Shown here: one piece after another, positions 28,701 to 31,700 of the stretch | Position numbering within the stretch: position 1 is the stretch's first letter | How the letters are laid out: each line of letters opens with the position of its first letter | NCBI RefSeq assembly: GCF_040593685.1 | Contig: NZ_JBEXZS010000136.1 | Span: forward strand, 1-64,000 | DNA length: 64,000 nt | DNA from: Methylobacterium sp. EM32 | GTDB taxonomy: Bacteria; Pseudomonadota; Alphaproteobacteria; Rhizobiales; Beijerinckiaceae | Reading direction: 5' to 3' | Translations under genes and position numbers: made by a program | The notes under the pieces: model-generated | Seen by the model: the letters and a program-made list of their open reading frames with translations, nothing else | Told to the model about the DNA's origin: nothing | Databases searched by the model: none

Positions 28701-31700
28701 AGGATGCCGAGGAGGCCGAGGGGAATCGACCGCGACCGCTCGACGAGGAGGCCGATGCAGCGGTCGGGCGCGGCGCCGCGGGCAAGCAGGTGCCGCGCCA
28801 GGCGCTCCGAATCCCGGTCGAGGTCGGCATAGGTGACGTCTCCGCCCGCGTCGGTGACGGCTTTGCGGCTCCCGTGGCGGGCCGCCACCGCCGCGAAGGC
28901 CGAGACCAGCGTCAGAGTCCGGGGATACTCGGCGATCGTGCTCGCCCGCACCAGCAGGGCGGCGCGCTCGCCCGGCAGCATCAGGTCGAGGTCGGCGAGC
29001 GGCCGGTCCGGGGCCGCCAGTGCGGCGGCGAGGAGCTGCGCGAAGCGGTCGTGGATGCGCCGGCCGGTCTCTTGGTCGAACAGGTCGCGGTTGAAGACGA
29101 GGCGCGTCGTCGCTTCCTTGTCCCCGCCCGCGACCGACAGGACGAGGTCGTACTTGCCCCAGCCGAGGCCGGTCTCGACCGGCTCCCACGCTCCGGCCTC
29201 CGGCTCGGCATAGTGGAACAGCACGTCGAACAGGGCCGTGCGGCTCATGTCGTTGCGCGGCTTCACCGCCAGCACGATCCGGTCGAAGGGGAGCGCGCCC
29301 TGCGCCCGGGCGGCGGCCGCCTCGCCGGCGCGGCGCCGGACGAGGTCGGCGAAGCTCTCGGCCCCGTCGACGCGCAGGCGCAGGGGCAGGAGGTTGGTCG
29401 CCGGCCCGACGACCTCCCGGGCAGCGTCCGGGCGCCAGGTCTCGCCGACGATCACGTCGTCCTGGCCCGACAGGCGGTGCAGCAGGGCGTGGTAGCCGGC
29501 GCCGAGGATGTCGGCGCGGGTCACCCCCAGCGCCTCGGCGAGGCGGTCGATCCCGGCCAGCGCGAGGGTGCCGCCGGTCGCGCCCGCCGTGTAGGTGTGG
29601 ATCGCCGGGCGCGGCCGGTCGGTCGGCAGCACCAGGGCGGCGACGCCGGCGAGCCGGTCGCGCCAGGCGGCGGCCTGCGCCGGATCGGCGGAGTCGCGCT
29701 CGCGGGCGGCCCAGGCCTTGAAGCCGGGGGCGGGCGGCAGGGATCCTTGCGGGTCCCGGTACAGGGTCTCCAGCTCGCGCAACAGCCGCGCGAGGGAGGC
29801 CGGATCGGCGAGCGCGTGATGGACGGTGAGCGCGAGCCACTGCGCCGTGTCAGAATTCGTCTCGCGGCACAGGGTCAGCCGGGCGAGCGGCGCCTCGCCA
29901 AGATCGAAGGAGACGCGGCTCGCCTCCTCCAGGGCGGCAAGCGCGGTCCCGGGCGCGGCCTCGATCAGCGTCACCGGCGGCACGGCGCCGGCGTGGGAGA
30001 TCACGACCGGACGCTCGTCGCGGGTGGCGATCGCGCTGCGCAGGACCGGGTGCCGGGCCGCCAAGCGGGCGGCGGCCTCGGCGAGACGGGCGGGGTCGAG
30101 CCCGTCCGCGACCCGGACGATCGCCGGCATGTTGTAGTAGGTCGGGCCGGCCGGATAGAGCACGCCGCGCTCGAAGCGGTCGACGAACCAGAGCCGTTCC
30201 TGGTGCGGGGTCGGCGCCTCCGGGCCGTCCGCGGCCTCGCCACCGGCGATGGCCTTGACCGGCGCCTCCGGATCGGCGGCGGCCGCCGTCATCAGCCGGA
30301 CGAGGCGCTCCATCAGCGCCGCGATGCGCGCACGCGTGAACAGGTCGGTGTTGTAGGTCGCCTTGATGCGCAGGGACGCATCCGCGCATTCGGTGACGTA
30401 GAGGGTGAGGTCGAACTGCGCCGTCGGCGTGTCGATCTCCTCCAGGCCAAAGCCCGACGCGCCGAGCACCCGGCCGATCCCGTCGCGGTCGTCCATCACC
30501 ACCACGATCTCGAAGAGCGGGTTGCGCGACGGATCGCGGGGGAGACCCAAGGCCTCGACGACCCGGTCGAGGGGCGTGTCGCCGTGGGCGAGCGCCCCCA
30601 TCAGGGCGTCGCGGGCCGTCCCCAGCACGGCGGTGAAGCCGGCCTCGGGATCGAGAACGGCCCTGAGCGCCAGGGTGTTGACGAAGAAGCCGATCTGGTC
30701 GGCGAGTGCCGGGTGGTCGCGCCCGGCCGTCACGGTGCCGAGCACGATGTCGCGGCTCCCGGTCTCGACCCAGACGAGGCCGTAGAGCGCCGCGACGGTG
30801 CCCGCGAAGGCGCTTGCGCCGTGAATGGCCGCCAGCGCCTTCAGCGCCGCCGCCGTCGCGACCGGGACGTCCACGGTGACGTGGTCGCCCGCGAAGGTCT
30901 TGACCGCCGGGCGCGGGTGATCGGGGCGCAATTCCGTGCGCGGCGCGCCGGCGAGCCGCCCGGTCCAGTATGCGAGGTGGGAATCGGGCCGGGACGCCGC
31001 CCAGGCGGCGTAGTCGCGGTATTGCAGCGGCAGAGCCGGCAGGCGGTCCGGCACCCCGCGCATGGCCGCGCCGTAGAGCGCCAGGACGTCGCGGACGAGG
31101 ATTCCGAGGGACCACACGTCGCTGATTGCGTGGTGGATCAGGACGACGAGGCGGTCGCCGTCCGCGGCGCCGCGCAGCCACGCCGCCCGCCACAGGGGCG
31201 CGGCCGCGAGGTCGAACGGCTCGGCGGCGAGCGCCCGCATCCGCCCGGCGATCGCCTCGGGGTCGAGGCCGGCGACGTCCTCCTCGTGCAGCACGAGGAG
31301 CGGCTCGGGCAGCACGGTCTGGACCGGCAGGCCGTCGCGCTCGGTGAGCGCGGTGCGCAGGCTCTCGTGGCGCGAGCCCAAACGGTGCAGGGCCGCGCGC
31401 AGGGCGGTAGCGTCGAGGGGCGCCGGGCTGCAGAGCGCGAAGCCGATCGTGTAGGCGGTCAGGCCCGGATCGATCCGGTCCAGCATCCACAGCCGGGCCT
31501 GGGCGTTCGAGGCCGGGACCGGGCCGGGCCCGGAATGGCGCGGGATCGGGGCGCGGCCGGCGCCGCGGTCGAGCCGGGCGGCGAGGCCCGCCACGGTCGG
31601 GGCCTCGAAGAACGCCCGCAGGCTGACGCTGCGGCCCGTCTCCCGCTCGATGCGGGCGAGCATCGCCAGCGCCTTCAGGCTGTGGCCGCCGAGATCGAAG

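Follow-up and report, generated by a model that had tools for sequence, protein, structure and literature searches.

A tandem condensation-domain module in a Methylobacterium lipopeptide synthetase carries a member of a threonine-dedicated clade of condensation-like domains

Keanumycin, nunamycin and thanamycin are lipopeptides of the syringomycin class, and L-allo-threonine is a rare residue. In the case of keanumycin, the first module of the nonribosomal peptide synthetase (NRPS) KeaB, which corresponds to residue 6, was described as containing a 'tandem CL domain' that is also found in thanamycin and nunamycin and whose role was 'not yet investigated' (PMC9897216), and residue 6 is L-allo-Thr (PMC9897216, PMC10599466). 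A similar arrangement occurs in Paraburkholderia megapolitana, where MgpB has the order ketosynthase (KS)-acyltransferase (AT)-thiolation domain (T)-aminotransferase (TA)-condensation domain (C)-adenylation domain (A)-T and MgpC has the order C-C-A(Thr)-T-C-A-T-...; the second C domain of MgpC, with the motif HHxxxDR, was placed as starter-like, and megapolipeptin contains one L-Thr and one L-allo-Thr beside a beta-amino fatty acid (PMC11411415). Here we describe a hybrid polyketide synthase (PKS)/NRPS gene, NRPS1, in a 64,000-nucleotide stretch of the genome of Methylobacterium sp. EM32 (contig NZ_JBEXZS010000136.1, positions 1 to 64,000; hereafter the window), in which the threonine module carries two condensation-family domains in tandem, Ca followed by Cb. 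We use the name C* for the clade that contains Cb. The architecture T-C-C-A(Thr)-T, a 'tandem LCL' arrangement, has already been recognised in KeaB and MgpC, with its role left open, and judged by its predicted domain order the locus in the window is a new alphaproteobacterial member.

Only one unusual chemical feature, L-allo-Thr at the C* module, is common to both characterised products, and we found no explanation for its origin in these products in the literature searched. Of the described systems, MgpB and MgpC show nearly the order of NRPS1, namely KS-AT-T-aminotransferase-C-A-T and then C-C-A(Thr)-T-C (MgpC being compared by its published description), but in the window the two are fused into one protein, a dead remnant is all that is left of the first module's A domain, and the downstream modules differ. 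The Methylobacterium cluster is a previously undescribed relative of the megapolipeptin-type beta-amino lipopeptide assembly line. Module 6 of KeaB shares the order T-C-C-A(Thr)-T, with both C domains at full length, but has no PKS or aminotransferase part. A Pseudomonas protein in our search results (P0140), which we infer to be KeaB from its architecture and taxon rather than from an accession, shows exactly the domain order of KeaB, C-C*-A(Thr)-T-C-A(Thr)-T-C-A-T-C-T-TE (TE, thioesterase); its C* domain, with the motifs HQERLWFVDTFE and HHLLADRSA, is followed by the code DFWNIGMVHK and falls in the same clade as Cb, although it has Arg after the Asp where Cb has Pro. Two further systems are comparable in part. 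In module 3 of the icosalide synthetase IcoA two tandem C domains share one acceptor carrier (T-C-Cstarter-A-T, PMC10510592), but the second is a starter-type domain that adds a beta-hydroxy acyl group to Ser, whereas Cb is not starter-like and is tied to Thr. The interface (I) domains and the glycopeptide X domains, which do not condense, are likewise accessories of the condensation fold inserted in a module, and the I domain stands directly before the A domain (C, then I-A-T, in MxgA/MxgB; PMC13638107); they have, however, lost the histidines of HHxxxDG and work with a dedicated oxygenase, whereas C* keeps HHxxxD and has no partner gene among the open reading frames (ORFs) of the window that were scanned.

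Both Ca and Cb are full-length condensation folds, and neither is a fragment. Their Pfam matches span almost the whole of the 456-position condensation profile (Table 1), and an AlphaFold2 model of Cb has a mean pLDDT of 89.9 and template-modelling (TM) scores of 0.85-0.88 to canonical C domains. Ca carries the N-terminal motif NAQARLWMLDRIDPG at aa 2945 (window 31507-31463) and the His motif HHAISDVWS at aa 3069 (31135-31109), together with SNAQARLWML, RHESLRT, YRDYAAW, IGFFVNT and RDPSRNPLFE. The corresponding motifs of Cb are PTPHQERLWFVDRFERG at aa 3376 (30214-30164) and HHALADPAS at aa 3507 (29821-29795), and the series continues as PHQERLWFVDRFERGVLY..P.YYNMP, VGPATNL, NDMSRTALFD and GWGKYD. 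A motif scan of the translation found no G[GAL]xS[LIV] carrier motif from aa 2884 to 4343. The initial annotation of this stretch, made from the letters and their ORFs, had proposed just such a pair, two complete domains with no carrier between them, each with an N-terminal and a His motif of its own; the motifs lie where it had put them, and neither a carrier Ser motif between the domains nor a truncated domain was seen when looked for. It had also singled out the second His motif as atypical, and Cb indeed has Pro in place of Gly after the Asp. The pair is not a recent tandem duplication, with Ca and Cb sharing 29% identity and Cb resembling the internal C domain of NRPS2 more closely than Ca (36%). 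Since the arrangement is kept in orthologues from Methylobacterium frigidaeris (84% amino-acid identity, the closest genome locus), Pseudochelatococcus (63%) and a Bradyrhizobium metagenome-assembled genome (MAG; 47%), an assembly artefact is excluded. In the PLSDB plasmid collection, megablast found no near match to the region.

Compared with domains of solved structure, Ca is by its sequence an ordinary LCL-type condensation domain. Its best relatives (Txo2, Txo1, TycC6 and the fuscachelin C domain, 4e-65 to 1e-49) are all LCL, and DCL, starter, heterocyclisation (Cy) and epimerisation (E) structures score far below them, an E domain (6ta8) reaching 8e-5. The core motifs C1-C7 can all be read in Ca, with one departure from the canonical pattern: Val replaces the Gly of the His motif (HHAISDVWS) in those orthologues that have Cb, while Gly is found in the orthologue L004, described below. 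The E-like character that its HHxxxDxxS pattern had suggested was therefore not borne out, given the LCL relatives, the score of 8e-5 for an E domain and the GGHSL-type T domain upstream (FFDLGGHSL at aa 2880, window 31702-31676). The nearest solved relatives of Cb are LCL domains as well, at about 1e-34, and its own orthologues have the His motifs HHAMGDRAA and HHAIADPQA. A profile of the C* clade matches LCL domains at 5e-96, AmbE at 7e-26 and the starter domain CDA-C1 at 2e-21; its similarity to E and dehydrating (modAA) domains is weak.

Several known kinds of condensation-superfamily domain were considered for Cb and set aside. The initial annotation had raised an epimerase-like or X-like identity for one of the two domains; no E domain stood among the matches listed for Cb, and the upstream T domain is of the GGHSL type. 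In the glycopeptide X domain the second His is lost (HRxxxDD), the position is T-X-TE, and P450 partners are encoded in the cluster. Cb instead keeps HH and is followed by an A domain, not a TE, and none of the ORFs scanned in the window proved to encode a P450, oxygenase or hydroxylase. An interface (I) domain, which works with an alpha-KG beta-hydroxylase, would fit the position, but HHxxxD is kept and no hydroxylase was found in the window (this comparison being made by description). A starter-type C domain was rejected on the scores, CDA-C1 matching Cb at 8e-7 against 1e-34 for LCL domains, which disagrees with the starter-like placement of the second C domain of MgpC by the megapolipeptin authors (PMC11411415). 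Cb is also not a heterocyclisation domain, having HHxxxD and not DxxxxD, and a dehydrating C domain (modAA/DHC) is contradicted by its place upstream of the A domain, the GGHSL T domain and the weak similarity to AmbE. Formation of dehydrobutyrine (Dhb), considered in view of the Thr code, was rejected on the position of the domain and the KeaB precedent. The suspicion that one of the pair does not condense was a reasonable one, and the second domain is non-canonical. Classification by subtype, the check that had been proposed, gave a familiar answer for Ca, which is LCL, and not for Cb, which is neither E nor X and belongs to a separate clade. This dedicated clade, extending from Pseudomonas to Chitinophaga, also excludes the idea that Cb is a leftover ordinary C domain.

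To define the clade we used an exhaustive search of 1.84 billion representatives and annotated the domains of the best 150 proteins, a ranking by whole-protein score in which giant NRPSs dominate. In many of these 150 the best match to Cb was the second domain of a C-C tandem. Members share the N-terminal motif (S/P)xHQ(E/K)R(L/I)WF(I/V)DxFE(R/T)(G/D)x(V/L)Y...P.Y(H/Y)N(I/L/M)P and a His motif in which HHxxxD is followed by R, K, P or H, or almost any residue but Gly; they have GPxxNL where ordinary C domains have GxFVNT, DMSRTALFD where these have RDxSRNPLFQ, and in addition GxGKYD. All of these motifs are present in Cb, and the clade-specific invariants fall in condensation motifs C1, C3, C5 and C7. 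Across 13 sequences, Cb and 12 from other lineages, 38 columns are invariant at an overall identity of about 30%, and Cb itself shares 29-38% identity with C* domains from beyond its alphaproteobacterial group. Among the C*-specific invariants, in alignment numbering, are His14, Tyr30, His216, Pro281, Thr336 and Asp340. In a tree of 120 C-type domains C* was monophyletic in 100/100 neighbour-joining bootstraps, with the Cb group nested inside it. HH is kept in 75 of 76 members. The clade spans many phyla, and its sources include Pseudomonas, Chitinophaga, Aliikangiella and alphaproteobacteria as well as many metagenomes; no solved structure lies within it. When Cb alone or the C* profile was used in word-index protein searches, most matches were short pieces of ordinary C domains, and the true C* domains among them were P0001 and P0002 only. 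On this tree and these motifs, C* is a separate, ancient clade of condensation-like domains dedicated to threonine modules.

The dedication to threonine was seen in every set examined. With A-domain codes extracted against GrsA (the control returned DAWTIAAICK), a Thr-type code followed 16/16 C* domains in the best 150 representatives and the orthologues, 15 of them conforming to DFWN/SxGM[VI]H and one reading DVWNVAMVH; in the same protein set such a code followed 53 of all 678 C domains that precede an A domain. Scanning metagenomes for C*-specific peptides yielded 80 loci, of which 60 passed the automatic parser. All 60 of these C* domains have HHxxxD followed by a residue other than Gly, and a complete Thr-like code was present in 55 of 58 downstream A domains, the remainder being one truncated domain and two from which no code was extracted. 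At nearly all loci a full C domain lies directly upstream of C*, either on the same polypeptide or as the C-terminal domain of the ORF before it, although in L121 and L137 nothing is found upstream. Three marine loci (L136, L143 and L144) repeat the order AMT-C1-T-Ca-Cb-A-T-C4 of NRPS1, where AMT is an aminotransferase domain and C1 and C4 are the outer C domains. In L110, L133 and L142 an E domain precedes the pair and the first C domain best matches a DCL-type query. Because the first C domain thus appears to track the chirality of the donor, it is presumably the condensing catalyst. In locus L078 (966-2246) a stand-alone gene encodes a C* domain of 426 aa (HHALCDDTS) and adjoins a C-A(Thr)-T gene, therefore implying an accessory role that can be exercised in trans. 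The same protein set also holds 38 Thr A domains with a single ordinary C domain.

One orthologue shows the same assembly line without Cb. In L004 (176-7708, an Azospirillaceae MAG) the order is AMT-C1-T-Ca-A-T-C4, the Ca motif is the canonical HHIISDGWS, and the A-domain code, DVEDVGAITK, is not that of threonine. Because both are missing there, Cb and the Thr A domain must have been gained or lost as one unit. Recombinational splicing of modules, which the initial annotation had offered as an alternative explanation of the pair, fits the probable origin of the tandem, with L004 having T-Ca-A-T and another A code and C* always accompanying a Thr A domain; from the domain orders compared here, the second domain was probably acquired by module recombination.

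Starting from what is observed directly, namely the architecture, the clade, the strict association with Thr and the retention of HHxxxD, we favour, tentatively, a reading in which condensation falls to Ca, with Cb as an accessory tailoring domain specific to Thr, most plausibly one converting L-Thr to L-allo-Thr. Ca would form the peptide bond between the chain bound to the upstream T domain and Thr on the downstream T domain, and Cb would act on carrier-bound Thr or peptidyl-Thr, inverting the beta-carbon to give L-allo-Thr. A conceivable route would use the retained His as a base, with beta-elimination followed by stereo-inverting re-addition of water. We infer each of these steps, the condensing role of Ca, catalysis by Cb and the allo-Thr chemistry, from comparison. 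The larger claim, that C* represents a catalytic subtype new to the condensation superfamily, one that inverts the beta-carbon of Thr and so constitutes the long-missing source of non-ribosomal L-allo-Thr, is a possibility that we regard as doubtful.

A number of observations weigh against this assignment. We found no biochemical test of any C* domain in the literature, and the cluster itself is known from sequence alone. The link to allo-Thr consists of two compound families, and N-Me-L-allo-Thr in jagaricin and chromolysin has been described without mention of a tandem C. Thr-type A domains weakly adenylate free L-allo-Thr (PMC13584550), so that allo-Thr could instead come from the pool of free amino acids. 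At locus L150 (3992-5299) a C* domain directly follows an A-T didomain protein and is the sole C-type domain before the Thr A domain; judged by this layout, some C* domains may condense alone. In Chitinophaga silvisoli the C* domain (P0023, aa 3618-4033) has QS for HH while keeping the other clade motifs. The ratio of non-synonymous to synonymous substitution rates (dN/dS) is 0.46-0.47 for Cb against 0.34-0.36 for Ca and C4, similar to that of the dead A remnant, a result that is non-discriminating, with Cb lying between ordinary domains and neutrality. Finally, a profile hidden Markov model built from other C* domains, with a training set that included P0033, identical to the L002 orthologue, gave Cb a score of 415 bits, against 402 bits for the highest-scoring ordinary C domain; because this margin is small, the membership of Cb in the clade rests on the tree and the motifs.

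Cb might instead be an inert scaffold, a C*-A(Thr) unit having recombined behind a resident C domain and been kept as the native C-lobe partner that the A domain needs for folding and docking. This would accord with the constant joint inheritance of C* and the Thr A domain, with the T-Ca-A-T form of the same assembly line in L004, with the loss of the Gly of HHxxxDG, with a dN/dS of Cb raised to the level of the dead A remnant and with the one C* domain that lacks HH (P0023). We nevertheless consider it unlikely, given that some 38 positions, new active-site-motif residues among them, have stayed invariant between lineages with about 30% identity, and that HH survives in 75 of the 76 members; the stand-alone C* gene of L078 is not fused to an A domain, and the 38 Thr A domains with a single ordinary C domain mean that C* is not needed as a partner. 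The retained HHxxxD is compatible with Cb being a second active acyltransferase, which would, for example, cap the beta-amine or acylate the hydroxyl of Thr, chain elongation being left to Ca. There is a precedent in the T-C-Cs-A-T tandem of icosalide (PMC10510592), capping of the amine has been suggested as the role of the second C domain of MgpC in the work on megapolipeptin (PMC11411415), an AMT lies upstream in the window, with AMT-type matches upstream of C* in L080, L082, L099, L122, L136, L143 and L144, and in L150 C* is the only C domain available. However, most C* modules, such as that of KeaB and the loci with T-E-DCL-C*-A order, have no AMT or free amine nearby, the papers on keanumycin and megapolipeptin (PMC9897216, PMC11411415) describe no extra acyl group on allo-Thr, Cb is far nearer to LCL domains than to CDA-C1, and capping of an amine would leave the strict coupling to Thr unexplained; this second acylation is rather improbable.

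A non-catalytic role in which Cb, like an X or I domain, would serve as a recruitment platform that docks a trans-acting tailoring enzyme onto Thr-S-T draws on its position, which is that of the I domain in MxgA/MxgB (PMC13638107), on the presence of X-domain structures among the good structural matches of Cb, and again on P0023. Yet X and I domains have lost HH whereas C* keeps it, no oxygenase or P450 gene occurs among the window ORFs scanned, and the only conserved neighbour, an AsnB-like gene, is also found beside the Cb-less synthetase of L004; we give docking of this kind little probability. The chance that Cb is an E-like alpha-epimerase or a dehydrating C domain, yielding D-allo-Thr or dehydrobutyrine, is very slim. 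Either activity would be in keeping with Thr as substrate and with a His kept as base, and dehydrating C domains are known, but E and dehydrating domains, as described, act downstream of the carrier of their residue, on a GGDS-type T domain (PMC10880069), while Cb lies upstream of the A domain with a GGHSL T domain. Moreover, the C* module of KeaB gives L-allo-Thr and it is the next module that gives Dhb, and the C* profile matches AmbE far more weakly than LCL domains.

The features of the synthetase and of its neighbours are collected in Table 1. The AMT domain should give a beta-amino fatty acyl thioester, and from its predicted domains the NRPS1 lipopeptide synthetase would build a beta-amino fatty acid and then extend it with amino acids. 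Of the A domain that should follow C1, only the A7-A10 region remains, with the A10 Lys replaced (PRRADGSPDR), and for this reason C1-T is a module without a functional A domain; the remnant is present in L001-L003 and shorter in L004. The Thr A domain is the sole amino-acid A domain in the protein, and in megapolipeptin one Thr A domain accounts for both Thr residues, so that, by analogy, the Thr A domain may load both carriers, that of the C1-T module as well as its own. At the other end, C4 pairs with the first A-T of NRPS2, which starts with A-T.

Table 1. Positions in the window of the synthetase genes, their domains and the adjoining AsnB-like gene, with the supporting matches.
Feature	Position	Strand	Evidence and remarks
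NRPS1, hybrid PKS/NRPS gene	25745..40339	-	4864 aa, translates without stops; order FAAL-ACP-KS-AT-ACP-AMT-C1-[A remnant]-T-Ca-Cb-A(Thr)-T-C4 (Pfam, NCBIfam, phmmer, motif positions)
Class-III aminotransferase (AMT) domain	33590..34768	-	PF00202, aa 1858-2215, E 7e-48
C1, condensation domain after AMT	32120..33487	-	HHIVADGWS aa 2408; PF00668 positions 7-323, E 6e-50
Degenerate A-domain remnant, A7-A10 region only	31790..32119	-	AMP-binding_C sole match, E 3e-7
T upstream of the tandem pair	31550..31777	-	PP-binding aa 2860-2923; GGHSL, Ser aa 2887
Ca, canonical LCL-type condensation domain	30245..31519	-	aa ~2941-3365; PF00668 positions 5-443/456, E 1e-80
Ca-Cb linker, about 10-11 residues	30212..30244	-	No carrier motif; poorly conserved, length varies in orthologues
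Cb, C*-clade condensation-like domain	28949..30211	-	aa ~3377-3797; PF00668 positions 8-456/456, E 3e-56
A domain, threonine code DFWNVGMVHK	27440..28894	-	A3 motif YTSGSTG aa 3957
T of the Thr module	27185..27397	-	GGHSL, motif aa 4339
C4, terminal LCL-type C domain	25820..27133	-	HHIVADGWS; PF00668 positions 6-447
AsnB-like, glutamine-hydrolysing asparagine-synthase-family gene	23875..25782	-	Pfam; TIGR01536 441 bits, cut-off 267
NRPS2, A-T-C-A(MT)-T-E	16454..23830	-	Terminal E domain 16460-17851
NRPS3, DCL-type C-A-T-TE	2862..7001	-	C domain 5397-6785; A code DLTKLGHIGK, Asp-like

The initial annotation had seen a second meeting of C with C, in trans, where NRPS2 was thought to end in a C domain and the TE-containing NRPS3 to begin with one. 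This turned out to be a routine hand-over from an E to a DCL domain. The terminal domain of NRPS2, with the motif HHLVVDAVSWGI behind a T domain of the form GGDSIRAI, is an E domain in every respect considered, and each solved structure that it matches with an E-value of at most 1e-10 is an E-containing chain (TycB-E is best at 1e-65, and TycA-E and GrsA-E are listed). NRPS3 starts with LTPFQEGLVFH and HHLLMDGWC and has TycB C1, then SrfA-C, as its best solved matches. The TycB C1 domain receives D-Phe from TycA. From this junction, the residue before the terminal Asp-like one and the TE is predicted to be D-configured and N-methylated (its A domain has the code DAATIAAVCK and contains a methyltransferase).

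The AsnB-like gene lies between NRPS1 and NRPS2 and directly follows the orthologous synthetase in L002, L003 and L004. With an Asp-like code in NRPS3, its product may amidate Asp or form an amide or lactam; it was rejected as a partner of Cb, since it also stands beside the Cb-less synthetase of L004. Between the NRPS genes, an 1168-aa protein (10967-14473, minus strand) combines a serine beta-lactamase/penicillin-binding-protein fold with an autotransporter beta-barrel and, on these predicted domains, could be a surface-displayed hydrolase acting on the lipopeptide; its gene adjoins that of a cyclic-peptide-type ABC exporter (14823-16670). The window has a GC content of 70-75% and the alphaproteobacterial markers HWE histidine kinase, autotransporter and RepC, the last (50868-52019, minus strand) indicating a repABC-type plasmid or chromid. 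At 56001-60000 a low-GC island (54.5% against about 70%) with three ORFs, one of 607 aa with a ParA/CbiA-like ATPase N-terminus, looks like acquired DNA.

Taken together, these comparisons make the second domain of the tandem a member of a conserved, widespread, Thr-dedicated clade and not an accident of duplication. In structure prediction, a C* domain is to be taken neither for an additional condensation step nor for a sign of a broken module, and it may predict allo-Thr. If our tentative assignment is true, the order T-C-C*-A(Thr)-T would be a genome-mining marker for L-allo-Thr.

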